Virus record (IMG/VR): IMGVR_UViG_3300021400_000932
Length of the DNA: 64,000 nucleotides
From: a virus
Lineage: Duplodnaviria; Heunggongvirae; Uroviricota; Caudoviricetes
Direction: 5' to 3' (one strand)
The position numbers and the translations under genes are program-made. Of the stretch, positions 2,017 through 39,689 are shown piece by piece. The first letter of the stretch is position 1. Each line of letters opens with the position of its first letter. A model generated the notes under the pieces. It ran no database searches, was not told the origin of the DNA, and saw only the letters and a program-made list of their open reading frames with translations.

Positions 2017-2025
2017 ATTGACCCC

Positions 2026-2241: not shown

Positions 2242-2252
2242 CTCACATCAAA

Positions 2253-2528: not shown

Positions 2529-2538
2529 TATACATATT

Positions 2539-2615: not shown

Positions 2616-2634
2616 ATATTTGTAACTAAAAAAC

Positions 2635-3270: not shown

Positions 3271-3279
3271 ACATCTTAT

Positions 3280-4056: not shown

Positions 4057-4313
4057 ATAGATGTGAGGTTGGTAGTCATCCTTTTACTGCTGAGGGGGAC
4101 CCCACAACTCCCGTTTTCGAATGGGTCCGCACGGAGATTCCAAAAGGTGCGGATTTCGAAGTAGCTACTCTCCAGCTACAAGAAGAACGGTTTTACCAAA
4201 GGACTCACAACGCGATGTGAAAATCCTACCGACCGATAAGGGGATGATTTCTCGTTTACCATCCTAACGCCATCTTTTCGGCGACTAACCCAGGGCAGGT
4301 ATATGTTTCCCTT

Positions 4314-4400
4314 TGGTGCAAGTGAAGGGAATTGAACCCTTAATCCCAACAGGGCATGGGATTTTAAGTCCCACTTGTATGCCAGTTCCAACACACTTGC
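4314..4400 (-). tRNA. tRNA-Leu (anticodon TAA), type II
   Basis: Acceptor GCAAGTG/CACTTGC, anticodon TGGGA-CTTAAAA-TCCCA, variable arm CCC-TGTT-GGG, T-arm AAGGGTTCAATTCCCTT, CCA encoded. Confidence 0.85.
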
Positions 4401-11257: not shown

Positions 11258-11628
11258 AGTAATTCATCCTGATACAGACTGCAATATTCTTTAGCTACAC
11301 ACTTTTTACATTCCCCCAACCATATTTCTTCACAATGTAGGCCACAATCATTTACCAAAAATAGCCTATCATCCGGATTTAGCCAATCCAGGCAATAAGA
11401 CTCCCCACTATCATTGTATCTTGAATCGGCGAGTGGAAACCTAGTTGCTTCGAGATGTAGAAAATCTACATCATCAAGAAACCAGAGTGCTTCCGATTTT
11501 GCCTTTCCTCTGGTTGGTGCAAAGGCAACAACACAGTTAAACCCATTCCTCTCACGCACCATCCAAGCCTTCATATGTTCTTCACCTCTACACCTTGTAA
11601 AGTATCCTGCGCATTCGACGCCAACCAC
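11233..11628 (-). CDS. hypothetical Cys-rich protein
   Basis: 131-aa ORF. Confidence 0.45.
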   Translation of the reverse strand: MVGVECAGYFTRCRGEEHMKAWMVRERNGFNCVVAFAPTRGKAKSEALWFLDDVDFLHLEATRFPLADSRYNDSGESYCLDWLNPDDRLFLVNDCGLHCEEIWLGECKKCVAKEYCSLYQDELLCMTEDAL

Positions 11629-11846
11629 TTATACAGTCGAGATTGACAAGTTGCCGGACTGCTGATTTTAATACTTTGACAATCAGTAAAACCATTCCGA
11701 CAATCCTCATAACAAGGACAATGTTCGCAATTAGTCCACCGGTACATAAAATCTGCAAAAACACCGGATGTCAGTTCAGCACCGTTCAAGATTCTAAACA
11801 AATCACCCAATGTTGTATTCTTCATCTTATCGAAATTTGTCATCAT
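11571..11846 (-). CDS. hypothetical protein
   Basis: 91-aa ORF. Confidence 0.4.
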   Translation of the reverse strand: MMTNFDKMKNTTLGDLFRILNGAELTSGVFADFMYRWTNCEHCPCYEDCRNGFTDCQSIKISSPATCQSRLYKWLASNAQDTLQGVEVKNI

Positions 11847-11850
11847 AGCA

Positions 11851-12240
11851 TCAACACATCTTGAAATTATCTATATCCTGTTCATCATCTCGTTCGAAAT
11901 GAACAACTTCCGGAAGTTTATAGTAGCTAAAACTACCTCTTTTATCTCCGAATACTGTACGGATAGCTTGGTACACATCCCAAACTTTGTCGGCATTTTC
12001 AAACTTGCCGATACCATATGAATGACCTCTACCAAACAACTCCGGATAAATATACTTGCGAGCTTCAAGAAGAAGTTCATCAGCTTTCTCTCTGCGCTCC
12101 AAGTATTCATCCGAATTGATGGTAAGACTAAGAAGTTCATATGGAATTTCCGTGAACTGACCCATAAAAACGCGAGCATAAAACTCACAAGCATGTCCAA
12201 GCAATTTGGCTTGTTTATCTGTTAGAGTAATCTGTATCAT
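11851..12240 (-). CDS. hypothetical protein
   Basis: 129-aa ORF. Confidence 0.45.
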   Translation of the reverse strand: MIQITLTDKQAKLLGHACEFYARVFMGQFTEIPYELLSLTINSDEYLERREKADELLLEARKYIYPELFGRGHSYGIGKFENADKVWDVYQAIRTVFGDKRGSFSYYKLPEVVHFERDDEQDIDNFKMC

Positions 12241-12256
12241 AATAGTTTATCCCTTT

Positions 12257-12517
12257 CTAAGTTTCCGCATCTTCCGAATCCCATAAATCAGAATAAGGAG
12301 AAAGCAAGTTGCTCCAGAAATTCCAACCATAGTCAACTTCGCTTTCAAGCCACTTTCTTCTGCAGTCGTCACACATATCCCGTTCACAGTCATCAAAACA
12401 TTGGCAATAGAAAGTTGCTTCCTGGAAACATCCTAGTACGCTACCTTTCTCTACAAATGCGATAAACTTTGCTACCTCATCTGCTGTGAGAGATTGTAAC
12501 ATTTCAAGATTTGTCAT
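12257..12517 (-). CDS. hypothetical Cys-rich protein
   Basis: 86-aa ORF. Confidence 0.4.
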   Translation of the reverse strand: MTNLEMLQSLTADEVAKFIAFVEKGSVLGCFQEATFYCQCFDDCERDMCDDCRRKWLESEVDYGWNFWSNLLSPYSDLWDSEDAET

Positions 12518-12527
12518 ATTATTACCT

Positions 12528-12926
12528 TTAATCCTTGTTCTGTCTGAGAGATTTACCGCAAATAGGACAGTAGTTTATCTTTGACTGCAACCCATTTGAA
12601 CTGCCGCCATGTATATCATATCCATATGCGATAATAACAGGTCCGGTTGGTTCTGTTTCTTGCTTTATGGCGATGCCGACGTCATTAGTCTTTCCGATTA
12701 CCAATGGTTCTGCCCCATCACAGTAGGGGCAAGGCTGGCTATCTGATTCGGAAATCTTTTGTTCTACCCAAGCCATTTCTTTATCATGAATCTCATTAAT
12801 CATCTGCACTCTGACACCTGTGCTCACATTGGCAATCCGCAAAATATTATCTACTGACTCCAAAAGATGATTAAGCAAAGTTTCTATGCCATCGACCATA
12901 CTCTTATTGTTCATCTTTAACCTCAC
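12528..12926 (-). CDS. zinc-finger protein
   Basis: CPYCDG...CPICGK. Confidence 0.45.
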   Translation of the reverse strand: MRLKMNNKSMVDGIETLLNHLLESVDNILRIANVSTGVRVQMINEIHDKEMAWVEQKISESDSQPCPYCDGAEPLVIGKTNDVGIAIKQETEPTGPVIIAYGYDIHGGSSNGLQSKINYCPICGKSLRQNKD

Positions 12927-13134
12927 AACTTCTCATATTCCAAGCATCTACTGCTTCTTCTCTTGTTTTATATGCTTTGGTGGTAACACCACAATCTGTA
13001 CACTCACCCCTATACCCACCATAGACGTGGTGTTCATCAAATGGATTATTTATATACCTTGCTTGTGTCCACCTGCTACCGCAAAATGGACAAGGCTTTA
13101 ATTCAGATGCATCATTCATTTTCGCATGCTGCAT
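12904..13134 (-). CDS. zinc-ribbon protein
   Basis: CPFCGS...CTDCGV. Confidence 0.45.
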   Translation of the reverse strand: MQHAKMNDASELKPCPFCGSRWTQARYINNPFDEHHVYGGYRGECTDCGVTTKAYKTREEAVDAWNMRSCEVKDEQ

Positions 13135-13345
13135 ATTTTAAATATTCCTCCTGAGAAATAGACACAATGTTACTACTGCCTTTAACATACTCAGTGTGAC
13201 ACTCTGGACATCGGATGGTAGAACGCACACCAAGAGTTTTATAATTTATGAATTCAATTTCATCGAAAACAAATATACAACCGCAAGGACAACTTGCTTT
13301 ATAATACTTGTGCGGTTCTTTTTCTCTGTGTTTAATAACTACCAT
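13112..13345 (-). CDS. zinc-ribbon protein
   Basis: CPCGC...CPEC. Confidence 0.45.
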   Translation of the reverse strand: MVVIKHREKEPHKYYKASCPCGCIFVFDEIEFINYKTLGVRSTIRCPECHTEYVKGSSNIVSISQEEYLKYAACENE

Positions 13346-13362
13346 ATTGTAGCCCCCTTAGT

Positions 13363-13554
13363 TTATTTGTTATTTGGTATGTCTGAATCTGGAAGTTCAT
13401 GAATAGGACAATCCTCAAGTCTATCACAACAAAACTGGTCATAGCATTCTCTGTCCAACCGAGAACAAATGCGTCGTGAATAACTGTTTACATAAGAAAA
13501 CTGACATTCGTAGCACTCTTTCGGGACTTCCATATCTTCAATCCACACAGCCAT
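13363..13554 (-). CDS. small Cys-rich protein
   Basis: 63-aa ORF. Confidence 0.35.
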   Translation of the reverse strand: MAVWIEDMEVPKECYECQFSYVNSYSRRICSRLDRECYDQFCCDRLEDCPIHELPDSDIPNNK

Positions 13555-13575
13555 TTATTATCACCAAAGTACCTT

Positions 13576-13992
13576 TCATTGTTCAGTATAATCTTTATCT
13601 AAATATCGCCATCTCATTGGGACTACTGCCTTATCATCATGGAAAAATTCACTTGGCATATATCCAACATGGTCACTAACTTCTTTGATAATTCCATAAA
13701 GTTTTATTGTCGATATATTGAGAATAGAAAATCCGTTAATGTCATAGTTTATCCCAACGCACACACACTCTCCGAATATTAACCCCTTGGGAGAAAGCGG
13801 TCTATCCGATGTAGGATAGTAAAATGAAATATCTCCGACACTATCTTCATTACAATAGAGAAAACATTTAAACGGTGTCTTAATTTCTATCTTATCCGGC
13901 AAAACGATAACATGATATTTTTCGGCGATATCATATTCCGCTACGTCAATGTTGACCATTAGGCATTTCCGGTCAGATTCTTTTACAGCCAT
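13576..13992 (-). CDS. hypothetical protein
   Basis: 138-aa ORF. Confidence 0.45.
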   Translation of the reverse strand: MAVKESDRKCLMVNIDVAEYDIAEKYHVIVLPDKIEIKTPFKCFLYCNEDSVGDISFYYPTSDRPLSPKGLIFGECVCVGINYDINGFSILNISTIKLYGIIKEVSDHVGYMPSEFFHDDKAVVPMRWRYLDKDYTEQ

Positions 13993-14270
13993 TATTCATC
14001 CTCACCCCAATCAAGTTTCTGCCCACAATGACTACAGAATGGGTCATGATGAAAAATCAAACGACCACAAGCCGGACACTGTATATCCCCACAAACCTTG
14101 GTTTTGCGTATAGGCTTTTGAGGACTGTTAGACTGATTTGCATGAATGACTAATTTATCCACCGCACGACGGATTTCTTTTATCATTTCCGAAATCTTTG
14201 TGATAACCAATATGAAACAGATAATCAATACCGACACGGCTATGAATAAAATAAGACCAAGTAATTCCAT
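13992..14270 (-). CDS. membrane-anchored zinc-ribbon protein, CGQKLDW family
   Basis: N-terminal hydrophobic helix LLGLILFIAVSVLIICFILVI; C-terminal CPACGRL...CSHCGQKLDW. Confidence 0.5.
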   Translation of the reverse strand: MELLGLILFIAVSVLIICFILVITKISEMIKEIRRAVDKLVIHANQSNSPQKPIRKTKVCGDIQCPACGRLIFHHDPFCSHCGQKLDWGEDE

Positions 14271-14279
14271 AATTAAACC

Positions 14280-15212
14280 TCACACATAAGATATTTCCAT
14301 AGTGGCTGCAGCATCCGGACATAAAAGAGAATATCCGAAAAATGAATAAATCCCTGTGTTTTCGAACTGCTTGTCAATCAGTCTTTCATAATCCACATGA
14401 ACAGGGCCAAATCTAATCATCTCTAATGCAAACCTGTTGTCCATACCAACAATTACAGGGTATGGCATATTTGGACAAATAATTATCTTGGTATCTCCGC
14501 AATAGTAATTGTTATCTTTGAGTGTGATTGCCGAACCTAAATAATTCTGCAGTGATTCAAGCTCAGAAGATGAACAAATCATAGTTGATAATTTATATCC
14601 GTTTTTAGCATATAGTGATTTTGTAAATTTAGTTATGATACTATGTATATTATGTTTACCGACACATTCACAATCATTAAGCAGTTCCACAGCAGCAACA
14701 AGCTGGCATTTTGAAATATAACAACCAATTTGTTGTAATACCTTAGTTAATGTGGAGATTCTTTGAAATCTCAATGGTTCATATGCTGCATTAAGATTTC
14801 TGCCACATTTTCTTCTTGTGACTAAATCATGGTATGTACGCATACGCAATGATGCTTGTTTGTTATCCGATTCAGTATAAACGGAGCGGTAATCCATTCC
14901 ATTTGCATCAATAGTGTTTGCAACAATGTCCTGCACAACACTATTTTCATCAATGCCGATTTGTACACATCTTCTTACATACTCAGGGAACAGAACCGCT
15001 GAGTTGCTTGTTGCGAAGAATTTCTCTACTGTGTCGCTACTATTGCCACTTACTTTAATGTCAAATCTCTTTAGCTGGCGTGAAAAAGCATCCAAATCCT
15101 GTAAAGTTGTTCCATAGTAATTCTCGGATGGGTCCATGCTTTCTAATACATCGCTAAGGTTTCCGGCTTCATACATACCCTTTTCTAAAGTTATGCTATC
15201 AAAATTACTCAT
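14280..15212 (-). CDS. hypothetical protein
   Basis: 310-aa ORF. Confidence 0.5.
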   Translation of the reverse strand: MSNFDSITLEKGMYEAGNLSDVLESMDPSENYYGTTLQDLDAFSRQLKRFDIKVSGNSSDTVEKFFATSNSAVLFPEYVRRCVQIGIDENSVVQDIVANTIDANGMDYRSVYTESDNKQASLRMRTYHDLVTRRKCGRNLNAAYEPLRFQRISTLTKVLQQIGCYISKCQLVAAVELLNDCECVGKHNIHSIITKFTKSLYAKNGYKLSTMICSSSELESLQNYLGSAITLKDNNYYCGDTKIIICPNMPYPVIVGMDNRFALEMIRFGPVHVDYERLIDKQFENTGIYSFFGYSLLCPDAAATMEISYV

Positions 15213-15215
15213 AAA

Positions 15216-15503
15216 TTACTCCTCCCCAATCATCATAGGTGGAGTATCGTTTTTAAACCACCCTATTGACTGTTCTCCGGTCTCAGTATTCGTAAGAATC
15301 TCTACAGTACAATCTTCATGCCTTTCAACCACATTGAACATATTTGTCATTACGGTCGTGCGGTTATAAAGATATGGACACAAGACATCTTCTCCAAAGT
15401 AATCTGAATACCACTTCCGTCCTTCCTCTATGTCCTTATACATATAACAAACATCTTTATGACTGCAATGTTGACATATTTTCTTATTCATTAGATGTGC
15501 CAT
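15216..15503 (-). CDS. hypothetical protein
   Basis: 95-aa ORF. Confidence 0.4.
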   Translation of the reverse strand: MAHLMNKKICQHCSHKDVCYMYKDIEEGRKWYSDYFGEDVLCPYLYNRTTVMTNMFNVVERHEDCTVEILTNTETGEQSIGWFKNDTPPMMIGEE

Positions 15504-15513
15504 AGTTTATACC

Positions 15514-15804
15514 TCAATCTGTGTCATTTTGGGGTCTGTCATATTTTGATTTTAACCATGCTTGAAACTCTTCACGGTGTTCATCTGCGAACTTCTCGAA
15601 CTCTTCGGGTAGAGGTGTATAGCAAGAGGATGCCGCCATAGCAGACCTCTCCCAAAAGTTAGATTGCTTAGGTTCGCACATTCGCAGGAAAGTTCGCAGC
15701 ACTAAATCCATTGCCCTATCAGACTGTTGTTCTAAAATAGTATGTTGTAATTTCGCAGTTTCATCAGCAGCGTAAACACCACCAGAAGTATCAGAATTAA
15801 ACAT
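15514..15804 (-). CDS. hypothetical protein
   Basis: 96-aa ORF. Confidence 0.4.
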   Translation of the reverse strand: MFNSDTSGGVYAADETAKLQHTILEQQSDRAMDLVLRTFLRMCEPKQSNFWERSAMAASSCYTPLPEEFEKFADEHREEFQAWLKSKYDRPQNDTD

Positions 15805-17505: not shown

Positions 17506-17958
17506 TCAGAAAAGCATCTCTTCAAGCCTGCGTGCTTTTTCCTCAGCTTGTTTCAGCCAGGTTTCATATCTATCCAGCCAATAACCTCGTTCCATAGAGA
17601 GCATTTCCAGCAACTCTTCATCGCTTGCATCGGACAAAGGCAAATGTCCGCTACAACGTGCAGACTCAGTAATTGTATCTGAATCAAACCAAACCCAACC
17701 CTCACAAACACCGACCAGGGTAAAGCCGTACTTTCCGAACAAATTTGGATATTTGGTATCCCAACCCAAGGCTGGGCTGCTCTGATTAACTGCATCAAGC
17801 AGTTCTTGTCTTGTCATATATTTCATAGTATTACTCTTCCAACAGACTCCCAATCGAAGCTGCGGTATTCTGAGCAAGTTTGACATCAACTTCACTCGGA
17901 ACCTGAATCCTATCGTCTGCAAGCAGAACAACCGAACCATAAACATCGCCATTTGCAA
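17506..17958 (-). CDS. hypothetical protein
   Basis: 150-aa ORF; its N-terminus overlaps the next gene, so the true start is probably internal. Confidence 0.4.
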   Translation of the reverse strand: MQMAMFMVRLFCLQTIGFRFRVKLMSNLLRIPQLRLGVCWKSNTMKYMTRQELLDAVNQSSPALGWDTKYPNLFGKYGFTLVGVCEGWVWFDSDTITESARCSGHLPLSDASDEELLEMLSMERGYWLDRYETWLKQAEEKARRLEEMLF

Positions 17959-18367
17959 TAATCGGAATCACCAAAGATGCCGGTCGGCAATTAGCATCGA
18001 ATGTCGGACGAACGACATTATCATGACTGTATGTGTATTGTCTTCTGCTTTCGATGACAGTTTCGAGTTCATTTGAGATAGTCTGTTCAATGTATTGTCG
18101 CTTACTTACTCCGGAAACAGCTACTACTGAGTCTCTGTCAGTAATCAAAACAGAGTGCGAACTTAGCGATTCAAGTACATTTGCAAACTTGCCGACAAAA
18201 GATGATAGAGAACTGATTGGATGATACTTCTTGTAAATAATAGCACCATCCTCAACATAGATTTCCAGAGGGTCACCCTCTCTAATCCTTAAAGAACGGC
18301 GTATCTCCTTCGGAATTATAACTCTCCCGAGGTCATCAATTCTACGAACAATTCCGGTTGCTTTCAT
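17831..18367 (-). CDS. spoVT: SpoVT-like transcriptional regulator (AbrB-type N-terminal domain + GAF-like C-terminal domain)
   Basis: 178 aa. N-terminal MKATGIVRRIDDLGRVIIPKEIRRSLRIREGDPLEIYVE closely resembles Bacillus SpoVT (recalled from memory, not database-checked). Length and two-domain layout also match. Confidence 0.75.
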   Translation of the reverse strand: MKATGIVRRIDDLGRVIIPKEIRRSLRIREGDPLEIYVEDGAIIYKKYHPISSLSSFVGKFANVLESLSSHSVLITDRDSVVAVSGVSKRQYIEQTISNELETVIESRRQYTYSHDNVVRPTFDANCRPASLVIPIIANGDVYGSVVLLADDRIQVPSEVDVKLAQNTAASIGSLLEE

Positions 18368-20754: not shown

Positions 20755-21115
20755 AGATATTGCCTATAACTTCGAGGTACTGCGAATTCCATAAAGCATC
20801 TGAATCAGGACAAGGATGTTTGTCCTCTAAGGCATATAAATCCCAGCCTGCAAAATACTGTGAGCTGAGCCACACAACGGAGCAAGCTCTGCCATGCTGA
20901 GTACGAACAACATCACCTTCAAAAATAGGAGTTCCAAACTTATCATTTCGACCGGTATATTCACACACAGATTCCGGAATGATTTCATACGGAGAATCAA
21001 ATTCTTGTGTTTCTGTATCAATGTGGGTAATCTGCTGTTCTTTGGTAAACACACCGCAAGCAGGAAGTCCTTGTATCCACTGCTTATTGTCTTTCCTCTT
21101 TGCCCTGATTGACAC
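20714..21115 (-). CDS. YopX-like protein (second paralog), GTG start abutting the IS right end
   Basis: MSIRAKRKDNKQWIQG parallels the other YopX-like N-terminus; the start codon GTG at 21113-21115 lies ~5 nt from the IS terminal hairpin. Confidence 0.5.
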   Translation of the reverse strand: MSIRAKRKDNKQWIQGLPACGVFTKEQQITHIDTETQEFDSPYEIIPESVCEYTGRNDKFGTPIFEGDVVRTQHGRACSVVWLSSQYFAGWDLYALEDKHPCPDSDALWNSQYLEVIGNIFDGWENTNKLEGN

Positions 21116-21116
21116 T

Positions 21117-21300
21117 CCACACGACTAAAGTCGTGGGATTCTTGCTTCAACGACTACGGCGAGCGTTTTACTCAAAGAGTTCAGCTCGACTTACACAATC
21201 TCCACAAGCTAGATTAAAGAGTTCCCGTGTGCCCCACGGTGCTCTGTGTATTAATAGAGGTTAAGCTATCATAGCCAACCCTTTAGTTAATATATTCATA
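21117..21300 (-). ncRNA. putative TnpB omega/right-end guide RNA (3' end of tnpB plus right end)
   Basis: Structured ~145-nt right-end segment downstream of the tnpB stop, ending in the terminal hairpin; by analogy to characterised IS605 TnpB systems. Confidence 0.4.
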
Positions 21301-22355
21301 GCGGCATTGACATCTCTGTCGTGATACTCTCCGCACTCGGGGCAAGTCCACTTTCGTATAGCTAAATTCTTAACTAATGGATTTTTATATCCGCACTTGT
21401 TACACAACTGACTGCTCGGATAGGTAGTAGGCACTCTCTGTACTGTCCTGCCGTACCAGGCAGCTTTGTATTCAAGCATTGTAAAAAACTTAGACCACGA
21501 AGCGGAGGATATACTTTTAGCCAGCTTGTGATTTTTGAGCATATTTTTGATTTTCAAGTCTTCTACACAGATTACTTGGTTTTCGTTAATCAGTGTAGTT
21601 GAAAGCTTTTGCAAAAAATCATTTCGCTGATTAGATACCTTCTCGTGGACTTTAGCTACTCTTAGTCGTTGCTTATCTCTGTTATGGGAGTCAACCTTCT
21701 TTCTGGAAAGTTTTCTTTGTTCTCTGCGTAATTTTCTTTGTGTTCGTTCTAACCTTTTGTGATTAGGTACAGAATTACCGTTACTGTCGGAATAGAAATC
21801 TTTTATGCCGACATCTATACCAATAACGGAATCTATTCTGTCTAAAGGTTGAGGTTCAAAGTCAATGTTAAGAACAGCAAAATACTTTCCTGTAGGTGTT
21901 CTCTCTACAGTAACATTATTAATATGACCTATATTCATTGACTGTTTGACTTTAATATAGCCAAGCTTTGGTAACTTTAGTTTATTGCCGTCAATGCGAA
22001 TATTATTACCTTGATTAAGAGTTCTGTAACTCTGGCGATGGTTATGTTTACTTTTGAAACAAGGATATCTGCCTAACTTCTTAAAGAAGTTTTGATACGC
22101 TCGGTCTAAATCCCTGAGAGATTGTTGCAGAGCAATACTATCAACTTCCTTAAGAAAGGAAAAGTCATCTTGCATTTTCATAGAGGTGAGCATAGCAGAA
22201 GTAGCGGTATAGTTAGCTTTATTACCTAACTTGTATTGTTCAATTCTGTATGCTAAACCTTTGTTGTAAATGAATCGAACACAACCAAGAGTGCGGTTTA
22301 TTATGTTTTGCTGTTCCCGATTGGGATAGATACGAAACTTTACACCTTTGTTCAT
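21261..22355 (-). CDS. tnpB: TnpB (IS605 OrfB-family RNA-guided nuclease)
   Basis: 364 aa; RuvC-like motifs ([10 protein letters not shown]) and C-terminal zinc finger CNKCG...CPECG. Confidence 0.85.
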
Positions 22356-22364: not shown

Positions 22365-22781
22365 CTATGGTCTTGTTTTCTGGGTATTTACATACCACTG
22401 TATTGTTTCAGAGCTTACATTACCGGCAGTAGAAACAAAGTAACTTCTAGTCCAAAGACTAGGCATAGCACTGAGTTCGTTAAATTCTTTGCGAAGTATC
22501 ACTGAGGATGCACCTTTAATGTATTGCATGATTTGTGGAATTGATTGTGTAGGTAAAGCACTTACAAAAATATGAACGTGGTCTACATGACATTCTAAAG
22601 CAAGAATTTCAATCTTTTGTTTTTTGCACACCGCTAAGGTTAATTCCTTGAACCGTTCTTCAACTCCTTTAATATTGAAGATTTTTCTACGGTAGCGAGG
22701 GCAAAATACAAAATGATAGTTAATCAATGATACTGTTGTTTTTGTGTGTTTATATATATTCTTCATATATATATTATACAA
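22365..22781 (-). CDS. tnpA: TnpA (IS200-like Y1 HuH transposase)
   Basis: INYHFVFCPRYRRKIF and HVDHVHIFVSALP (HuH) motifs; ~130 aa. Confidence 0.85.
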   Translation of the reverse strand: MYNIYMKNIYKHTKTTVSLINYHFVFCPRYRRKIFNIKGVEERFKELTLAVCKKQKIEILALECHVDHVHIFVSALPTQSIPQIMQYIKGASSVILRKEFNELSAMPSLWTRSYFVSTAGNVSSETIQWYVNTQKTRP

Positions 22782-22797: not shown

Positions 22798-23217
22798 TCA
22801 AGAAATACATCTACTAATTTTAAGAATATTTGCGGCTATCATCCCACAGCTAAAGCAATAGGTTTTCTCACCGCAAGAAATTATAAGAAAATTCTCTACT
22901 TCTTGATGTTCGTCAAGATATTTTTGAATTTCATCACCCCTGTTTCCGGTAGAAACATATGGGGTTCGACCGAGTATCTTAACACCATCCCAAAGACCGC
23001 CATTGACAAGACAATCCTTGTAGTTATTATCGAATCGCCATGTACTTGTCACAACAATAGCATACCCACATTCCTCGCAGAATTTGGATACCCATTGGAC
23101 AGCTTGGAAGTTATTTACTTTATTATCTCCGGAATGATTAAACCGGCAGTGCTTACCGATATCATCCCACATAGGAGTATTCACAACTCCATCATAGTCT
23201 AAAAACAGGACATTCAT
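22798..23217 (-). CDS. HAD-superfamily phosphatase-like protein (C-terminus possibly remodelled by IS insertion)
   Basis: N-terminal MNVLFLDYDGVVN matches HAD motif I (DxDGV). The last codons SRCIS-stop are encoded by the 5' arm of the IS left-end hairpin. Confidence 0.55.
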   Translation of the reverse strand: MNVLFLDYDGVVNTPMWDDIGKHCRFNHSGDNKVNNFQAVQWVSKFCEECGYAIVVTSTWRFDNNYKDCLVNGGLWDGVKILGRTPYVSTGNRGDEIQKYLDEHQEVENFLIISCGEKTYCFSCGMIAANILKISRCIS

Positions 23218-23354
23218 TCTTTGTTATCCCTTTCCTCTTTCTTAGCTCTTGTAAGCATGAGAAGTACAATAGACAGAATCACTTGAACAATAGTTAAGAT
23301 TGTCTGAAAGAAGTTTACCATCAATATAAGAAAGGAGAAATTTCCTTCGGACAT
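23214..23354 (-). CDS. small hydrophobic membrane peptide (46 aa), not in ORF track
   Basis: Translated by hand: MSEGNFSFLILMVNFFQTILTIVQVILSIVLLMLTRAKKEERDNKE; the TGA stop overlaps the ATG of the downstream gene (ATGA). Confidence 0.45.
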   Translation of the reverse strand: MSEGNFSFLILMVNFFQTILTIVQVILSIVLLMLTRAKKEERDNKE

Positions 23355-23370
23355 CCACTTCGAAATATTA

Positions 23371-23529
23371 TCAAATAAGTTCATCGACGTCTTTACCTTG
23401 TTCTATAGATTTTATGATTGCATTTATGTTATGTACCCTAACAATGCACATTATGGCAACGCCAAAGAAACCGCCTACAAGTAAACCGATTAAACCGCCG
23501 ACAAGAAGTCCGGCCATAAAATCAGGCAT
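23371..23529 (-). CDS. small glycine-zipper membrane peptide (52 aa), not in ORF track
   Basis: Translated by hand: MPDFMAGLLVGGLIGLLVGGFFGVAIMCIVRVHNINAIIKSIEQGKDVDELI. Confidence 0.45.
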   Translation of the reverse strand: MPDFMAGLLVGGLIGLLVGGFFGVAIMCIVRVHNINAIIKSIEQGKDVDELI

Positions 23530-23547
23530 AATATCAACTCCAAACAA

Positions 23548-24105: not shown

Positions 24106-24702
24106 TTATAAAACGCTCAAGCACTCATCAATATATGCTTTAACCCGCAGACCAAACTCCTTAACTCGTTCGCAATATATAACCATCATCCTTTCGGTGA
24201 TTGTTTTATCTTCGCGTTCTAAGGCTTGCTTGATTAATCCTTGATTTGCAAGCATATTCCGCAATGTTTTATTAGAAATGGTATTCAGACCATCAATGAT
24301 GGCATCCAACAGTTCTCTATCGGACATTGTGATATGAGGATTAAATTTGCGTTTGCCTAATTCAGCAATCCCGTTACGTGTGTCCCAATAAATTGCAATT
24401 TTCGGCATCGACCTAATCCTATACTTATTACCGCAGTAGTTGTCCATCCACTCAGTATATGGCCAATGCTTATTTCTAACATAGATAGTGGAATTGAACA
24501 TCGGACTATCAATTTGCATAATGCTATAAAGTTGGATAAGATATAAATACATATCCAACCTTTTGCGTCGCATATGAATACCATTAGCTAAGTTGGTGTT
24601 TACAATATAACCGGCAATATCCAAAACTGTGTATATTCTGTGCTTAGACCTCACCTTTACCATTTCAGCTCGTTCATCAGCTTGCTTTACAAGATTAAGC
24701 AT
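24106..24702 (-). CDS. hypothetical protein
   Basis: 198-aa ORF. Confidence 0.5.
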   Translation of the reverse strand: MLNLVKQADERAEMVKVRSKHRIYTVLDIAGYIVNTNLANGIHMRRKRLDMYLYLIQLYSIMQIDSPMFNSTIYVRNKHWPYTEWMDNYCGNKYRIRSMPKIAIYWDTRNGIAELGKRKFNPHITMSDRELLDAIIDGLNTISNKTLRNMLANQGLIKQALEREDKTITERMMVIYCERVKEFGLRVKAYIDECLSVL

Positions 24703-25158: not shown

Positions 25159-25353
25159 TTAGCATTCATCGCAACAGAGAGTTACACGACCGTCTGATTC
25201 GCAAATATCAGTAACATTCCCACCAGCGGTTGCGTATCCGCAATCGTAAGTGCATAACAATTCGATGATGCTATCTTCATTATAAGTTTTGAGCTTTTCA
25301 ATCAATTCTTTTACTTTCATAATTGCCGCCATCCTATTACTATATTGTATCAC
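25159..25353 (-). CDS. small Cys-rich protein
   Basis: 64-aa ORF; AATCGTTAT motif upstream. Confidence 0.4.
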   Translation of the reverse strand: MIQYSNRMAAIMKVKELIEKLKTYNEDSIIELLCTYDCGYATAGGNVTDICESDGRVTLCCDEC

Positions 25354-25434
25354 ATTGTATATAACGATTATAAAAATAGAATTACCGCCTACAATCCGAA
25401 ATTGGAAAGTAGACGGTATTGAAAATATTTTGTA

Positions 25435-27027
25435 TTATGTATTTGAAATGTCGGATACCTGTGTTGGGATATCTGTAGTAGGAACGTCATTCACATGAAC
25501 CGCTACATTATCACCGCCAAGTGCCTTAGCACCGAACAGACCGACAAGCAGGGACTTGAGGTCAAATCCCATAGATTCGCTCAGACCATCATTAACCTGA
25601 GTCAGTCCGTTGATAATCTGTCCGGTAAACTGACCTGCATCACCACCAAAAATCTTGATGGAATCAACAGAACTGAATCCACCTGCGATAGCCGAAGCAA
25701 TTTCCGGCAGCTTGTCAAAGTAGGCAACTGCCGCATCGAGAACCATCTGTTTCTGTGCAGCTTCGCCATACAGAGCCATAGCCTCAGCCTTTTCTTTCAA
25801 ACCTTCAGCCTCAGCAATCAGCTTAGCCTTTGCGGCCTCAGCCTCTGCATTACCTTTGGCGCGGATAGCATCAGCTTCTGCTAAACCAGCAGCACGAATA
25901 GCCTCTGCATCCTGTTCCTTTGCGAAACGTTCAGCCTCCGCAGATGCCTTTTTAGCCGATGCACTCTGCTGTGCCTCATACATCTGAGCATCTGCATCCT
26001 GCTGGCGCTTGTACTTCTCAGCTTCTGCATTACGCTGTTCTGTGTAAAGTTCAGCATCAGCTTCCTGCTGTGCAGCAAACTTATCAGCTTCTGCTTTCTT
26101 CTTGATTTCGGCTTCAAGTCTACGCTCAGTAATCTTTACCTCACGTTCTTCAAGTTCAATCTGCTTTTCCTGACGAGCAAGGTTCGCATCAGCTTCTGCA
26201 ATTTCCTTGGACTTGCGCTGATTCTCAGCCTCAATGCCCTTGGCCGCCTCTGCCTTTGCAATCTTGATGTCCTGCTGTTCCTTGAGTTCAGCCTGCTTGA
26301 TAGCAAGCGCATTCTCTTTAATAGCAATTTCAGTCTGGGCCGCAATCTCAGCATCATTAGCTTGCTTCTGTGCATCCGCCTGAGCAATAGCTACCTCTGC
26401 CCTTGCGCGTGCTGCAGCAATAGAGGCATCCTTTTTAATCTGTTCAGTATTCTCAATACCGAGATTGTCAATAACCCCATTCTGGTCAGAGAAGTTCTGA
26501 ATATTAAAAGTAGTGAGCTTAAGACCCATATCTCGAAGATTCGGACTGACATTCTCAGTAATCTTCTCAGCAAGTACTTTCTTATCTCCGCGAATTAAAT
26601 CAGTCAGCGGAATCTGAGAAATGATTTCACGAATGTTACCCTCTAAAATCGGGGTAATTTCAACCCGAATTTCTTCTGTAGTACGACCTAGGAATTTAGA
26701 AGCCGCAATCTTCAGAACCTCTGGGTCTTGGTCAATAGACATATTGGCTACAGCATCGACACGAATATTGATTGCATCCTGTGTCGGAATCTCACTCTTA
26801 GAAACAAAGTCAACCTGAATGTTTTCGAGTGACATAAAGTCCACTCTCTGAAAAAATGGGATTACAAATTTCGCCCTACCGATATAAGTCTTTGCACCTC
26901 TCGGACCAGTAACAACCATAGCTCGGTTGGGTGGGCATTTTCGATAGCACACCTTAAAGATAAGGACCAACAGAAAAAGAACTACAATGCCTGCGATAAC
27001 TGGGGTAAGAATTTGCCATGGAACCAT
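25435..27027 (-). CDS. flotillin-like SPFH/band-7 protein (FloT/YqiK-like)
   Basis: N-terminal transmembrane helix, SPFH core (NRAMVVTGPRGAKTYIGRAKFVIPFFQRVDFMSLENIQVDF), long Ala/Glu-rich coiled coil (AEAE repeats), C-terminal domain; 530 aa. Confidence 0.8.
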   Translation of the reverse strand: MVPWQILTPVIAGIVVLFLLVLIFKVCYRKCPPNRAMVVTGPRGAKTYIGRAKFVIPFFQRVDFMSLENIQVDFVSKSEIPTQDAINIRVDAVANMSIDQDPEVLKIAASKFLGRTTEEIRVEITPILEGNIREIISQIPLTDLIRGDKKVLAEKITENVSPNLRDMGLKLTTFNIQNFSDQNGVIDNLGIENTEQIKKDASIAAARARAEVAIAQADAQKQANDAEIAAQTEIAIKENALAIKQAELKEQQDIKIAKAEAAKGIEAENQRKSKEIAEADANLARQEKQIELEEREVKITERRLEAEIKKKAEADKFAAQQEADAELYTEQRNAEAEKYKRQQDADAQMYEAQQSASAKKASAEAERFAKEQDAEAIRAAGLAEADAIRAKGNAEAEAAKAKLIAEAEGLKEKAEAMALYGEAAQKQMVLDAAVAYFDKLPEIASAIAGGFSSVDSIKIFGGDAGQFTGQIINGLTQVNDGLSESMGFDLKSLLVGLFGAKALGGDNVAVHVNDVPTTDIPTQVSDISNT

Positions 27028-27246
27028 AAGTAAATTTCCTCCTTAAATTTTTATATACTTATTTCCTATCTCTTCGCCGTTTGCACTAGAACAAAACACC
27101 GAGGCATTGCATCAAATACCAATACTGACAAGCAAATGCTTTCAGTAACTATCACCACCCTTTCTTTAATATATACAATATAACGATTCATATAAATAAA
27201 AATGCGGTATGGTTTAGCACCTTACCGCAGAATTTTCAGATTTTAT

Positions 27247-27543
27247 TTATTCTTGTTCAAATTTAGATGGGTCGATGTCACACAGAGCTTGCAGAGCTTC
27301 GGATACTTTGTCAGCTTTTTCACCATAACCACCGATAACCGAAGCAACAGCGCACACCCAAGCATCCGCACTCACTTCTTCTTTCCCCAGAGCCTGCCAA
27401 AACTCATCACAAGCGTCAGTAAGTTCTTCGCACTCTTGCTTTAGGTCAGAATTTGTTTTGATGATTGCCTTAGCTTTATCAAGGATTATCTGCTTTAATG
27501 AATTGAAATATGCACTTCTGTACATTTCTGTGAGAGCATCCAT
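27247..27543 (-). CDS. hypothetical protein
   Basis: 98-aa ORF. Confidence 0.4.
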   Translation of the reverse strand: MDALTEMYRSAYFNSLKQIILDKAKAIIKTNSDLKQECEELTDACDEFWQALGKEEVSADAWVCAVASVIGGYGEKADKVSEALQALCDIDPSKFEQE

Positions 27544-32604: not shown

Positions 32605-32671
32605 ATATAACGATTGTCGATATTAAATTGTAAGGTATTTGTGCAACTTCTACAACAAACTTGCGAACAAA

Positions 32672-35551
32672 TTAGGTATAATTTGTAAGGTCTGTCTGAG
32701 GAGGAAGTGCAATAAGGTCAATGGTAATCTTCTGAATTGTTCCTGCTGGAGTAATGTAGATTTTGCCCACGCAGCTATTGGCCTTGACCGTGCCGATGGC
32801 ATCAAAGTCATTACCAATAACAACCTTGTAATCTCCGATAGCTCCGGCATTCTTCATAGAATCGAGGATAGGAGTTACGCCAACATAGAAGCTAGAGAAA
32901 GCTGCTTGGTTGGTATACTGGAATGTGATGGAGATACCTACCTTGTATACTACATTCTTGATGGCATTGACCAACAGACGAGTCGATAGATTTCTCAGAG
33001 CCTGATAGGTTGCAGGCGGATTCTCATACAGAGTGGAGTCACCCCATACGCTTAAACCGAGGTCGGGAATATTAGCGATAGCATTGACGCCAACACCACC
33101 CTCAGTATCGGGGTCAGGCTGCCACTTATCGAGATACTTCTTAGATACAGTGTAATCCATCTTACCGATTCTTACATTGTTCTTTCTCGAAGTTGGCTGA
33201 ATCCACTCATACTGCAAGCTCTGGTTCAGAACCATAGACCTCTGGATTAACAATGCGAGGAAAGAAGGAGAAGCGATGTTCTGCTTGTTAGTTCCTACAT
33301 AGATGTAGTTACCCCAAGGTCCGAACAGTGCTGCATGGGTAGAACGCAGACCATCCATACCGGAATCATATCTTGCCAATCTCTGAGCATAGCCGGTTTC
33401 AGCAGGCTGCTGAGAAGAATTGGTTACATATACCTTAGAAAGACTTCTCGGAATATCGAGATATGCAGTAGCACAACGAGAACCATAAGCAACATCCATC
33501 AGCTTAGTCTGGAGCGGAGATGGAGTCATCATATTGTGCGGATACTTGTCATCACCTGTTACAAACAAGAAGTCTTGGTCATCCCAACCTGGGCTAATCA
33601 ATCTATTCGGATTGTATGCTAACTTATCTGTCAGCAGACCGTATACAGGCAAGCAGTTAGTGAATAACCACTCTCTATAAAGTAAAGTCTGCGCAGTAGT
33701 AGAATCAATCGGAGAAGATATAACTTTTGTACCGTCCAAGATAGTTTTGTTGTACATGTCACAGAATGTCGATAGATAAGCAGTTTGCGCAAACCAGTCA
33801 GTAACCTTGCACTTTACTTTGTATGTGTATTCCTCAGTTGTTGTAAACTTGGCAACACCAGCAGCAGTAAAGATAATATTAAGTTTATTTTCCGAAATCG
33901 TATAATGCGTATTCTTCTCAAGTCCTGGAGCACTACCAACAGGCTCGCCATCATGAATCGGAGATGAGTCATCAGCATTTATAGCTACACCATTATGTTT
34001 GGAATAGTACTTAATATTTAAAGTTGGCGCGCCCTTGTCATAGTATTTATTCGACTCCCAAGTTGGCGCACTCGCTCCAGAAGGCACAGCCACATAGTTA
34101 CCGCTTAAATCCTTTTCATAGTAACTAGTATAGGTTGTAGCCCAGTCATCAGGTTCAGAAGTAAGCAAAGTATATTTAGTATGAGATTCCAGAATATCCT
34201 TAGAAATCGTAATATTTACGTCATCATCAGACTCTTTCTTCTTTGGATTCTCACCATAACGGCTACCGACATAAGCAATAGTATCTATCAAGCATTTTGC
34301 GATATCGGTTTCAGCAGTTTTGTCTGAACCGCCCGCAAATTCAATCCATGTATTCACATTATCAACATCCGTTTGTCCATTTGCCGCAGCAAAAACGGTA
34401 TCTTCACTAAGACCCTCTGCAACAATATTAACGAACTGAGACTGAACCTCTCCTACATATGGAATGTTGTCAGTCGAATTTGTGATATCAAATGTGAATA
34501 TCATATTTTCAACTGCAAGTCTTACACCAGAAGCATCCTGAATATAGGTGATGAGGTTCCAATACTTCTGACCTCTGCTCTCCATCTTATTGAGAGAACA
34601 ACGAATGTTATTACCGAATGTGCCTGGGTACTTAGCAGTTAAAGTAAGAGAACCTGTTTCTTCAGCCTTACCAGTTTTCGGATTTACTGCGCGAATGTCT
34701 GTAGAATAGGTAATGGTAATAGAATCATCTGCCATAATTCCTACAGATTCCCATGTGGGATAATCGGTTCTGTAGTAAGTGTTTTCAGCGAAAGTAGGTG
34801 CGGAATCACCACTGAGCGGAGTATATGTATCGCCGGACTTGGAATAATATGATTTCCATTTAGTGCTCCAATCCTCCGGTGCTGCTTCAAGAACAATAAA
34901 TGGACGCTTGAACTTAACAACTATTGTTTCTCCAGTTTTGCTGTACTCAAGCCACTTTTTGCTTTCCGCAGTTTGCTTCCCATCCTTATCCAACTTAATC
35001 TCACGATAATTCGAATTGAAATTAGGATTAGTAGATGTACAAATAAAACTATGTTCATCATTCGGTTCTCGATTCAATGCGAATGTTGCAATGCTTACAG
35101 AATCATTTATATTTACGTTTTTCGCATCATCAGAATCTTCGACAACATCACGCTTGATACTATTACTCATATTGCCGACTGCGGCAATACCTGGCGAAAC
35201 TCTACAAACAAGAACATCATAACCAGCAGTAAGCAGCGAAACAGCCATTTGGTAGGAATAATCCTGAGCTAGACGATAGTTAGCGGCCGCACCACGATAG
35301 GTGGACACAAAAGATTCAAGACCCTGAGAATTTGCTTTGAATCTCGTCCATACAATATCTTCGATAGCCTGCTCATCAGCACTTGCTGAAGATACAGTAA
35401 TTTTGCCTGTTTTGCCATCCATCACCTTTTCAGAACCAAGATATGCAGGTCCCCAACTTGCGGTAATCGGCAGAGCAACACAACAGTATGAATTATCGCC
35501 TATGACATACGAATAATTTTGGGATATTTCATTAATTAAAATATCTGCCAT
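32672..35551 (-). CDS. tail sheath protein (959 aa, with insertion domains)
   Basis: N-terminal ILINEIS...VALPITASWGPAYLGSEK matches the sheath N-terminal consensus (compare P2 FI LEINEG...TASDAD). C-terminal SVWGDST...GKIYITPAGTIQKITIDLIAL matches the sheath C-terminal domain (P2 FI RFWGNRT...GKLYIDYDYTPV). Confidence 0.8.
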   Translation of the reverse strand: MADILINEISQNYSYVIGDNSYCCVALPITASWGPAYLGSEKVMDGKTGKITVSSASADEQAIEDIVWTRFKANSQGLESFVSTYRGAAANYRLAQDYSYQMAVSLLTAGYDVLVCRVSPGIAAVGNMSNSIKRDVVEDSDDAKNVNINDSVSIATFALNREPNDEHSFICTSTNPNFNSNYREIKLDKDGKQTAESKKWLEYSKTGETIVVKFKRPFIVLEAAPEDWSTKWKSYYSKSGDTYTPLSGDSAPTFAENTYYRTDYPTWESVGIMADDSITITYSTDIRAVNPKTGKAEETGSLTLTAKYPGTFGNNIRCSLNKMESRGQKYWNLITYIQDASGVRLAVENMIFTFDITNSTDNIPYVGEVQSQFVNIVAEGLSEDTVFAAANGQTDVDNVNTWIEFAGGSDKTAETDIAKCLIDTIAYVGSRYGENPKKKESDDDVNITISKDILESHTKYTLLTSEPDDWATTYTSYYEKDLSGNYVAVPSGASAPTWESNKYYDKGAPTLNIKYYSKHNGVAINADDSSPIHDGEPVGSAPGLEKNTHYTISENKLNIIFTAAGVAKFTTTEEYTYKVKCKVTDWFAQTAYLSTFCDMYNKTILDGTKVISSPIDSTTAQTLLYREWLFTNCLPVYGLLTDKLAYNPNRLISPGWDDQDFLFVTGDDKYPHNMMTPSPLQTKLMDVAYGSRCATAYLDIPRSLSKVYVTNSSQQPAETGYAQRLARYDSGMDGLRSTHAALFGPWGNYIYVGTNKQNIASPSFLALLIQRSMVLNQSLQYEWIQPTSRKNNVRIGKMDYTVSKKYLDKWQPDPDTEGGVGVNAIANIPDLGLSVWGDSTLYENPPATYQALRNLSTRLLVNAIKNVVYKVGISITFQYTNQAAFSSFYVGVTPILDSMKNAGAIGDYKVVIGNDFDAIGTVKANSCVGKIYITPAGTIQKITIDLIALPPQTDLTNYT

Positions 35552-38174: not shown

Positions 38175-39689
38175 TTATAGTGTAGTTTCTTCAGTTTCCG
38201 AAGAAACATCCAGAGCTGTATCGGATATAGTTGCACTAGTCTTTGGCATACACTCACCAAGAATCTCTGACAATGCTATCTTAAACACCTCTGGCTTATC
38301 TACTCTAAGACTTTTCAGCAAATCAACAAGTGTGGAAGATTGCGTAATAGCCATATCGCGCTTATCAAACTGCAATGCACTCATTTCAGTAAGAATCGGC
38401 TGCATATGCAATTCGAACTTGTTTTCGTATCGAGAATGACCCTTTGCCACAAAATACTTGTTTAATGCATCAGTCCATCCGGCCATATATGCGGTTTCTA
38501 TTCGTTGCAAGGAGTTTGCATACAAAGCAGACCGCTGCGACATTACAGCACCGGCACCGCCAAGACCTTCAGCAGAAGAGAAGTTCAATGCCTCTTTCGG
38601 AATTCCCAGAACAGACAATTTCTTATCCTGATAGTAATTCAATAACTTATCAGCATTCTCAGAATCATCTTTCATGTTAAGGTCAGTAACAGATACAGCA
38701 TCTTGTCCGTTGACCTTTGGTATGTAAATCAAATTATTTGGCGACTGTGGGTTCAAGAAACTCTGGGTGTCGCCAGTATCTGTATTAAGAGAAAGCTGTT
38801 GCTGTATTGCATCCTTTATTTGTTGTAAGTTATCTCGGATTTCTTCTTCCTCTGTAGTGGTTCCGCAATCGACATTTATAAATCTTACAACTTTTACCAG
38901 AGATGACAAAATTGATGCATCTTCAAGCAGGTTCAGTATTTGTGTAGGTTGCAATGCCGCTTCTAACAATGGGTCTGCAAACTGAATATCATATACTGCG
39001 TCATTTCCATCTTTATCTCTTACAGCTATTTGATAATCACCAAGTAAACCACCGAGAGCAAAGTGAATAATGGACTGTTCAGGATAAATTACAGAACTTG
39101 ATGGCAAATAAGAAGTTTTTCCTTTTTGTTCTTCTGTAGGAGAAAGAATAAATCCTTTTCTTTCTCCTTGTTGCCAAACATGTATTACATCATCAGCAGG
39201 AATTTTTGTAGATGGTATGATATCATAACCATTGTCCGGAACGGTATTTGTATCAAGTGCAACACCAACATTCATATGTCGTGTTGACAAATCCTTATAC
39301 AAATCCGTTGTCGGTAAATACAAATTTCCTGTTGTAGCTAATTCAAGTATGTGGTCTCTTGCATATGCATTAATATTCCATTTACGGAATAATGCGTTTA
39401 TCAGTTCTGCCGCATCTTTCGGACCATCCGGAACCGTAGTAGCCCAAATTATCTGTCCGGATGAATTTGGAATTGTGGCGTCGGTCGCATAATAGGATAA
39501 AGCGGTTGCTACCTGAGAGTCCTTTGCCAAAGCTCGCATCTTATCAATAGTTGTCTTAATATCTGCGAGGTCTGAATCACTTTTTATGTCAGATAGGCGA
39601 TAAAAAGAACCACCAACGACACTTCTTAAAAATGACTGCGGCTTTGGACGCCGAACTACGGTCATAATCTTATCAAAAAATTTTGCCAT
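38175..39689 (-). CDS. putative portal protein
   Basis: 504-aa protein in the terminase-proximal position; CCTTATATAAT motif upstream; no diagnostic motif verified. Confidence 0.4.
   Translation of the reverse strand: MAKFFDKIMTVVRRPKPQSFLRSVVGGSFYRLSDIKSDSDLADIKTTIDKMRALAKDSQVATALSYYATDATIPNSSGQIIWATTVPDGPKDAAELINALFRKWNINAYARDHILELATTGNLYLPTTDLYKDLSTRHMNVGVALDTNTVPDNGYDIIPSTKIPADDVIHVWQQGERKGFILSPTEEQKGKTSYLPSSSVIYPEQSIIHFALGGLLGDYQIAVRDKDGNDAVYDIQFADPLLEAALQPTQILNLLEDASILSSLVKVVRFINVDCGTTTEEEEIRDNLQQIKDAIQQQLSLNTDTGDTQSFLNPQSPNNLIYIPKVNGQDAVSVTDLNMKDDSENADKLLNYYQDKKLSVLGIPKEALNFSSAEGLGGAGAVMSQRSALYANSLQRIETAYMAGWTDALNKYFVAKGHSRYENKFELHMQPILTEMSALQFDKRDMAITQSSTLVDLLKSLRVDKPEVFKIALSEILGECMPKTSATISDTALDVSSETEETTL

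Follow-up and report, generated by a model that had tools for sequence, protein, structure and literature searches.

The 64,000-nt stretch of phage DNA analysed here (the window) carries on its minus strand a gene for a 530-residue flotillin. This gene is a self-contained unit, in which the terminator of the upstream gene, the motif AATCGTTATA, a leader, a ribosome-binding site, the coding sequence and a further terminator follow one another. The features of the locus are listed below in the direction of transcription; L001, L002 and L011 denote syntenic phage sequences.

27198..27228, minus strand: intrinsic terminator of the upstream gene (hairpin and T-run, from the sequence; stem conserved)
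27179..27188, minus strand: promoter-like element AATCGTTATA (earlier given as AATCGTTAT(A)), 152-161 nt upstream of the ATG
27028..27178, minus strand: leader of about 150 nt, from the upstream alignment of the window, L001, L002 and L011
27038..27044, minus strand: Shine-Dalgarno sequence AAGGAGG, 10 nt before the ATG, invariant in the window, L001, L002 and L011
25435..27027, minus strand: flotillin coding sequence (ORF call), ATG start, 530 aa, 57.6 kDa, pI 4.9
26947..27018, minus strand: N-terminal membrane anchor, aa 4-27 (hydropathy and AlphaFold2 helix)
26398..26934, minus strand: SPFH/Band-7 core, aa 32-210 (PF01145; pLDDT about 80; Foldseek)
25921..26451, minus strand: Ala/Glu-rich long helix, aa 193-369 (AlphaFold2, composition, alignment to the flotillin-1 coiled coil)
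25633..25881, minus strand: flotillin C-terminal domain, aa 383-465 (PF15975; alignment to flotillin-1)
25372..25418, minus strand: intrinsic terminator of the flotillin gene (-20.8 kcal/mol, z=-7.3)
25360..25369, minus strand: second AATCGTTATA, which opens the next transcription unit (from the sequence)

Two domains of the protein pass the Pfam curated cutoffs: Band_7 (PF01145) at aa 32-210, where 73.5 bits exceed the cutoff of 23.6 (E=2.9e-20) and profile positions 4-176 of 176 align, and Flot (PF15975) at aa 383-465, which scores 32 bits with a cutoff of 27 (E=1.4e-7). A generic coiled-coil protein is thereby ruled out. There is a single hydrophobic segment, with a Kyte-Doolittle maximum over 19 residues of 3.08 at residue 6 and none elsewhere, and the membrane helix at aa 4-27 is followed by the basic segment KVCYRKCPPNR, so that a positive-inside orientation with the bulk of the protein in the cytoplasm is predicted. 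Residues 191-420 consist to 65% of A, E, K and Q and contain 35 EA/AE dipeptides. In an AlphaFold2 monomer model built from a 21-sequence alignment, a transmembrane helix (4-27), an alpha/beta SPFH core (35-180) and an unbroken helix (193-369) were obtained, with pLDDT values of about 80 for residues 1-370 (76-87 in the long helix) and below 50 for aa 372-530. The long helix is modelled as the equivalent of the CC1/CC2 wall of flotillin cages.

The same placement within the SPFH superfamily came from structure comparisons. Flotillin cage chains were the top Foldseek matches (E of about 3e-18), with stomatin, HflK/C, prohibitin, erlin and QmcA at 1e-10 or weaker, and flotillin-1/2 (9bq2, 9l3g) were the only sequence matches in the PDB (best E=4e-39), aligning in two stretches that cover the SPFH-coiled coil and the CC2-CTD (flotillin-1 residues 295-414). 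By both sequence and fold matches to the PDB, the phage protein is nearer to flotillins than to stomatin, prohibitin or HflK/C. The NCBIfam FloT model NF058507 also matches aa 11-387 (E=1.5e-77); its score of 261.7 bits falls well short of the 700 demanded of an equivalog, which makes the protein a member of the flotillin family and not a FloT ortholog in NCBI's sense. The initial annotation had described a FloT/YqiK-like phage flotillin with an N-terminal membrane anchor and a long Ala/Glu coiled coil, and had let its case hang on recovery of the SPFH domain by a PF01145 profile. That description holds throughout: the protein is full-length, with every flotillin domain present, the SPFH domain was recovered by sequence and by fold, Pfam, the FloT model, PDB, AlphaFold2 and Foldseek agree on the family, the anchor is the single helix at aa 4-27, and the coiled coil is seen in both the model and the composition. 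Among PHROGs, a weak match to a 'lipoprotein' family (phrog_200, E=1.6e-4) was also recorded; tape-measure matches were rejected as spurious, being caused by the coiled coil.

Comparison with known systems places the phage protein closest to bacterial chromosomal flotillins. Those of Lachnospiraceae and other Bacillota (e.g., P0016, MAG GCA_024399135.1, annotated 'flotillin family protein') are 59-66% identical over nearly the full length and have the same length and domain order; the phage copy is set apart from the Lachnospiraceae flotillins by 14 diagnostic substitutions and by its own promoter-like element and leader. The nearest bacterial copy (L006) is, like the phage gene, a stand-alone gene without an adjacent NfeD, although the bacterial flotillin sits among transporter and GGDEF genes and the phage gene among small ORFs on the same strand. 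B. subtilis FloT (YuaG) and E. coli YqiK share with the phage protein the anchor, the SPFH domain, the EA-rich coiled coil and the C-terminal domain, whereas the NfeD partner of this type (yuaF/yqiJ-like) does not adjoin the phage gene. The human flotillin-1/2 44-mer (9bq2, 9l3g) is the best solved-structure match in sequence and fold, and the flotillin order SPFH1-SPFH2-CC1-CC2-CTD (PMC13000311) is that of the phage protein. The human proteins are 23-27% identical to it, attach to the membrane by acylation and hydrophobic loops rather than by a predicted N-terminal transmembrane helix, and form a hetero-oligomer, whereas a single paralog is encoded here. The SPFH cage of HflK/HflC-FtsH is a structural match as well, yet a weaker one (E of about 1e-10 against 1e-18), and HflK/C lacks the Flot C-terminal domain. 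No FtsH-related gene lies near the phage flotillin. HflK/HflC has historically been tied to phage biology through lambda CII; its bulk is periplasmic, whereas that of the phage flotillin is predicted to be cytoplasmic.

The limits of the transcription unit are well marked. Between the end of the upstream ORF at 27247 and the leader lies the upstream terminator, whose stem is kept in L011 and L001 despite sequence changes (the hairpins there reach -15.1 and -15.6 kcal/mol, with z between -5 and -7); the terminator behind the flotillin gene shows a compensatory A-U to G-C change in L011. With terminators on both sides that are conserved in related phages, the flotillin gene is monocistronic. The element at 27179-27188 reads as a putative extended -10 (cGtTATAtt) and is overlapped by a sigma-70-like site at 27196-27168. 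Five exact copies of AATCGTTATA, all on the coding strand, are present in the window against 0.24 expected, which argues against a chance match; at up to one mismatch there are 16 sites against 7.2 expected. The sites are intergenic, and some adjoin structural and replication genes. The motif recurs in the syntenic phages L001, L002, L011 and L094, was not found in the other clade members L003, L008 and L010, and is missing from all but two of the flotillin loci in IMG/VR. It is probably a lineage-specific promoter-like element of the extended -10 type; several sites agree with a simple -10 promoter, but since just about 16 nt separate the copies at 2515 and 32606 from the start codon that follows, its promoter role is one that we infer.

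The leader behind this element is well conserved. Across 243 aligned columns of the upstream region that includes it, mean column identity among the window, L001, L002 and L011 is 92%, with an invariant block of about 55 nt within the leader, while dS in the adjoining coding sequence ranges from 0.28 (against L011) to 0.98 (against L001); the leader must therefore be constrained. The long untranslated region and the motif some 160 nt upstream, both pointed out in the initial annotation, are thus real features of the lineage. One further, near-identical leader copy (L094) was found in JGI metagenomes, none in IMG/VR and no second copy within the window. The leader is absent from L003, L010 and L008, where the spacers measure just 43-61 nt and are also without AATCGTTATA. 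An Rfam search returned a single chance-level match that lies inside the coding sequence, the predicted fold is no better than that of shuffled sequence (MFE z=-0.29), and the alignment of the four sequences with L094 varies too little for covariation. A GTG-initiated ORF of 31-35 codons is open in all leader variants; its Shine-Dalgarno spacing is poor and its substitution counts are uninformative, so that a coding role is weakly indicated.

PHROG and Pfam scans of the window identified a tail sheath (32672-35551), a portal (38175-39689), a large terminase (41304-43625) and a DNA polymerase (53902-56799), together with a UvsX-like recombinase, clamp-loader subunits, a primase, a DnaB helicase and homing endonucleases. 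The sheath, portal, terminase, polymerase and eight tRNAs mark the window as part of a large tailed phage, whose ORFs are small and nearly all on the minus strand. The identical flotillin sequence also occurs on a 193,432-bp contig (that of P0121) and its siblings on contigs of 187-194 kb, so the complete genome is probably about 190 kb. It is probably an uncultured phage of gut Clostridia with a Lachnospiraceae-like host. When the 12 kb around the flotillin gene were searched against INPHARED at near-identity DNA level, just one 50-bp, IS-associated match was returned, which leaves the phage without a characterised close relative. The window shows no integrase, and a large phage that carries its own DNA polymerase and tRNAs would usually be virulent.

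A homologue search of 5.8 billion proteins placed the nearest copies (P0001-P0012) at 96-68% identity, followed by a continuum from about 65% downward that includes a protein named Lachnospiraceae flotillin. The DNA around the high-identity copies is phage-like, and four gene arrangements occur in it: the syntenic window type (L001, L002, L011), one with ROS/MucR, Lar and ligase genes (L003), one with NAD-salvage genes, RtcB and LemA (L010), and one with Thy1, adenylosuccinate synthase and a YunG-like gene (L008). A neighbour-joining tree of 121 sequences recovers the phage copies as monophyletic. Pairwise dN/dS within the clade is 0.03-0.11, none of the copies is truncated, and just 14 positions, mostly conservative, are diagnostic of the clade against 107 bacterial sequences. 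The phage flotillin is about 65% identical to the nearest Lachnospiraceae chromosomal copies, and dS between phage and bacterial copies is saturated. The initial annotation had raised a recent host capture as a question for phylogeny; the depth of the monophyletic clade (68-96%), the distance to host copies and the saturated dS point instead to an old one. Judged from these sequence comparisons, flotillin is an old phage gene under strong purifying selection. Within the window-type lineage its conservation matches that of the adjacent genes (80-96%), which agrees with stable vertical inheritance; between lineages it is nearly the only gene in common among the regions compared around it, and it has possibly been swapped among phages. 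Codon usage, compared with that of the phage and with that of a bacterial locus, did not discriminate: the RSCU correlation with other phage genes is 0.58 (0.54-0.87 for large window genes), and GC3 is 0.39, inside the phage range of 0.35 +/- 0.05.

How common such genes are depends on where one looks. A tblastn search of INPHARED found matches in 11 of 50,697 records, two of them annotated as 'flotillin family protein' (csAssE-Sib and KIT04), the BFVD contains 26 viral proteins of SPFH fold, nearly all of the short stomatin/HflK type, and a GTDB genome scan yielded two MAG loci. Single-protein scans of IMG/VR gave no flotillin match; by an alignment-based scan, at least 88 IMG/VR contigs with a full-length flotillin were recovered (37-62% identity, mostly 100-200 kb, about 20 groups at 80% identity). 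Their median ORF is 80-180 aa and typically at least 70% of genes lie on the flotillin's strand, compared with 436 aa and 21% at a bacterial flotillin locus. Thus, the statement in the initial annotation that phage flotillins are rare is fair for INPHARED and does not extend to these contigs, and annotations exist in GenBank as well; on present database counts, flotillin is uncommon across phages overall and recurrent in large phages. The SPFH membrane proteins on record for tailed phages include those of csAssE-Sib, Vibrio phage KIT04 and Kayvirus (MbpS), and further Band-7 proteins occur in Rhizobium phage Pasto, Vibrio phage pVa5 and Streptomyces phage StarPlatinum. Most are short proteins of the stomatin/HflK type (260-330 aa), and those of csAssE-Sib and KIT04 are 27-36% identical to the window flotillin in the SPFH core only. 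None of them has been functionally characterised; in the literature searched, phage SPFH genes appear in genome descriptions only (PMC7150955, PMC13239085, PMC13384950), and we found no functional study of one there. The family itself is known, and its phage setting is uncommon yet already on record.

The immediate surroundings of the gene offer few leads. Pfam and PHROG scans of the ten nearest neighbours yielded nothing informative on function; NfeD, holin and endolysin genes were all missing among them, and the flotillin gene does not belong to a recognisable lysis or structural module, so that the roles put forward in the initial annotation (lysis scaffold, exclusion, interference with signalling) are speculative. 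The flanking ORFs (27247-27543 and 25159-25353) have neither a Pfam match nor a transmembrane segment. Judged from the adjacent ORFs, and with terminators isolating the gene, the locus does not hold a two-gene SPFH-NfeD module. One neighbouring gene has a weak SocA/Panacea-like match, and two small ORFs with a single transmembrane segment each lie at 23214-23547, 2 kb downstream of the flotillin gene.

The explanation that in our view best covers the whole, and in which our confidence is evenly balanced, is that of a functional flotillin-subfamily SPFH protein carried as an auxiliary host-like gene by a tailed phage of about 190 kb. As to its role within that explanation, we lean more tentatively towards an auxiliary function that would sustain flotillin-dependent membrane properties during infection. 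The N-terminal helix would insert into the host cytoplasmic membrane, leaving the bulk of the protein in the cytoplasm, and the SPFH domains would dock at the inner leaflet; the long helix would then build the wall of a multi-subunit dome comparable to the flotillin-1/2 44-mer, with CC2/CTD as its roof, and nanoscale patches of membrane would be fenced off by it. By analogy, such an oligomeric dome at the membrane would be the most likely mechanism; since the C-terminal third of the model has pLDDT below 50, cage formation is argued from homology. Flotillin domes are known to enclose a membrane patch of 30 nm (PMC13000311, PMC11260169), and flotillins have been implicated in membrane fluidity and peptidoglycan synthesis (PMC7360373) and in the stabilisation of unfolded membrane proteins (PMC11222466). 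The phage protein would add to the host's own flotillin, perhaps in joint assemblies, and in this way membrane fluidity, the stability of membrane-protein complexes and tolerance of envelope stress could be kept up through a long infection cycle; it would not be expected to kill or lyse the cell.

No conserved functional partner that might point to a process was found near the gene, and this supplementing role is preferred chiefly on the ground that the protein shows no obvious change from the host versions, an observation that co-assembly for the purpose of hijacking fits equally well. Overproduced phage flotillin could join the roughly 65%-identical host flotillin and remodel or poison its microdomains, and the phage would gain from the resulting disturbance of division, cell-wall synthesis, secretion or the onset of sporulation. 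We consider such dominant interference possible, if unlikely: mixed oligomers are plausible given how similar the phage and host proteins are, and the strong ribosome-binding site, dedicated promoter and terminator suggest high expression, whereas the 14 conservative diagnostic sites give no sign of neo-functionalisation. A SpoVT homolog elsewhere in the window (17831-18367) shows that manipulation of sporulation would be within the repertoire of the phage, and a link from flotillin to SpoVT and KinC-dependent sporulation had been proposed in the initial annotation. This gene, however, lies 7 kb from the flotillin gene in a different transcription unit, and no SpoVT was found within 10 kb on either side of flotillin in the clade contexts L003, L008 and L010, so that the link is unsupported. 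KinC-type signalling is moreover a feature of Bacillus that is not known to be established in Clostridia. That the gene is a functionless, recently captured passenger, or a generic coiled coil, would agree with its host-like sequence and with an RSCU correlation at the low end of the range for large window genes; the Pfam domains, the monophyly of the phage clade and dN/dS values of 0.03-0.11 down to 68% identity effectively refute it, the saturated dS against bacteria and the phage-like GC3 weigh in the same direction, and we regard it as extremely improbable.

Two further readings draw on the genomic setting. The arrangement of promoter, gene and terminator resembles that of a moron. Flotillin is nearly the sole gene common to phage neighbourhoods that otherwise differ, a pattern suggestive of movement between phages, and its region is an accessory one in which a neighbouring gene has the weak SocA/Panacea-like match. 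On this reading its cage would serve exclusion or defence: it would sequester a receptor, an injection channel or an abortive-infection effector that acts at the membrane, and so shield an infected (or lysogenic) cell against other phages or against defences of the host. We hold this to be rather doubtful. PADLOC defence models gave no family for the protein at E<=0.1, AATCGTTATA is the phage lineage's own recurrent motif and stands beside structural and replication genes as well, and the phage, with no integrase seen in the window, is of a kind that would usually be virulent. It is also improbable, to a further degree, that the flotillin acts in lysis timing or secretion by organising holin rafts or the Sec-dependent export of lytic enzymes. 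In Kayvirus, the stomatin-like SPFH protein MbpS is encoded between lysK and tgl, and a lysis or secretion scaffold has been speculated for it (PMC7150955); the two single-transmembrane ORFs downstream of the flotillin gene could be read similarly. The window flotillin, in contrast to MbpS, does not lie in a lysis region, no adjacent gene matches an endolysin or holin family, the gene is its own transcription unit, and the neighbourhoods differ wholly between phages of the clade.

Bacterial flotillins are structurally well described, and their physiology is debated, with roles as a scaffold, a fluidity regulator and a stabiliser of unfolded membrane proteins under discussion. A host-like gene would stay under strong purifying selection in phages only if it removed a bottleneck of infection, and since the clade is maintained in several large gut-phage lineages, it amounts to a natural experiment on which membrane function limits phage production. 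The value of the locus lies in the evidence that selection maintains flotillins in large gut phages, and in its conserved leader, which is so far unexplained. Membrane-microdomain organisation joins the host functions carried by large phages, and the leader and AATCGTTATA are entry points to the transcription programme of uncultured Clostridia phages. A bolder and rather doubtful proposal is that many large gut phages (100-200 kb) have long carried flotillin as an accessory gene, have swapped it between lineages and use it to build a dome-fenced membrane compartment of their own. This would be a platform for a phage process such as replication, assembly or membrane anchoring, or would ward off abortive-infection effectors that target membranes, and here a constrained 150-nt leader of an undescribed kind would regulate the gene. 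Such a compartment would be a viral counterpart of membrane-microdomain organisation.

No gene was found to travel with flotillin in the window's own clade. In other phage groups, the recurrent neighbours of flotillin are metallophosphatases, a PhoH-like protein, an AAA_33 kinase and a small transmembrane and acidic ORF; none of these recurs in the clade of the window, and they were read as shared genome architecture rather than as obligate partners.

Five exact copies of AATCGTTATA occur on the coding strand of the window, against 0.24 expected, and all of them are intergenic:

2515-2524, minus strand, AATCGTTATA
25360-25369, minus strand, AATCGTTATA
27179-27188, minus strand, AATCGTTATA
32606-32615, minus strand, AATCGTTATA
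57806-57815, minus strand, AATCGTTATA

The element is also present in the syntenic phage loci L001, L002 and L011 and in L094, a metagenomic locus with a near-identical leader, and it is absent from the other flotillin phages, being restricted to the lineage of the window's phage. AATCGTTATA is probably a promoter or a regulatory element particular to this lineage, although at two sites only ~16 nt separate it from the next start codon, which counts against a simple promoter reading. Sequence reading of the leader itself gave one further feature:

within 27028-27178, minus strand, putative GTG-initiated ORF VVIVTESICLSVLVFDAMPRCFVLVQTAKR, 31-35 codons

This frame stays open in every leader variant, even though 6 nt have been deleted in frame and a stop codon has become Lys. 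Its Shine-Dalgarno spacing is poor, and protein coding by it is unproven.

The neighbourhood of the flotillin gene differs among phages. In many other large flotillin phages from IMG/VR (loci L023-L092), two calcineurin-like metallophosphatases, a PIN-PhoH-like ATPase and an AAA_33 kinase form a conserved block together with the flotillin. Directly downstream of it are a 154-aa ORF and an 82-aa ORF with a transmembrane segment and an acidic tail, and the 82-aa ORF could encode a flotillin partner (examples from the block: L023 9721-10185 and 10228-10476; L026 7390-7956; L018 3875-5080). In the 151-kb human gut phage csAssE-Sib (OR575929.1; locus L095, 3399-5626), a 164-aa "transmembrane protein" that may be an NfeD-like partner directly precedes an annotated "flotillin family protein," whereas the window's flotillin gene has no counterpart of it. 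In L010, a phage of the same flotillin clade, LemA and RtcB lie upstream of the flotillin, and downstream of it come tRNA-like sequences (11566-11900) and an NAD-salvage set of isochorismatase/nicotinamidase, NAPRTase and NAD synthase (11898-15567).

Several genes of the window lie downstream of its flotillin:

24106-24702, minus strand, 198-aa protein, weak SocA/Panacea-like match
23371-23547 and 23214-23384, minus strand, two overlapping small ORFs (58 and 56 aa), each with a single hydrophobic helix
21261-22781, minus strand, IS200/IS605-type element inserted between the HAD_SAK_2 gene and its neighbour
22365-22781, minus strand, its Y1 transposase TnpA
21261-22355, minus strand, its TnpB
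17831-18367, minus strand, full-length SpoVT homolog

Conserved versions of the two small ORFs, which lie 2 kb downstream of the window's flotillin, occur in L001 and L011. The ORFs matched no family; they could encode holin-like or other membrane effectors. The HAD_SAK_2 protein is only 139 aa long in the window, compared with 317 aa in L011 (12045-12998), where it also has a faint SocA_Panacea match. The IS200/IS605-type element is not at the corresponding position in L001 and L002. Just beyond the tnpB stop, 50 bp (21108-21157) with 96-98% identity to Enterocloster phages CB457P1 and CB473P3 are probably the end of this element.

The SpoVT homolog, kept in L001 and L011, combines an AbrB/MazE-type N-terminus with a SpoVT_C GAF-like domain (E=1.5e-29) and is a phage-borne sporulation regulator; its presence therefore suggests a spore-forming host.

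Two further features were recorded:

175-4400, minus strand, cluster of eight tRNA genes (Asn, Asp, Leu x3, Lys x2, Gly) with small ORFs in between
7025-8530, plus strand, 501-aa homing/HNH endonuclease

The endonuclease gene is the sole large plus-strand gene of the window, all other large genes being on the minus strand.
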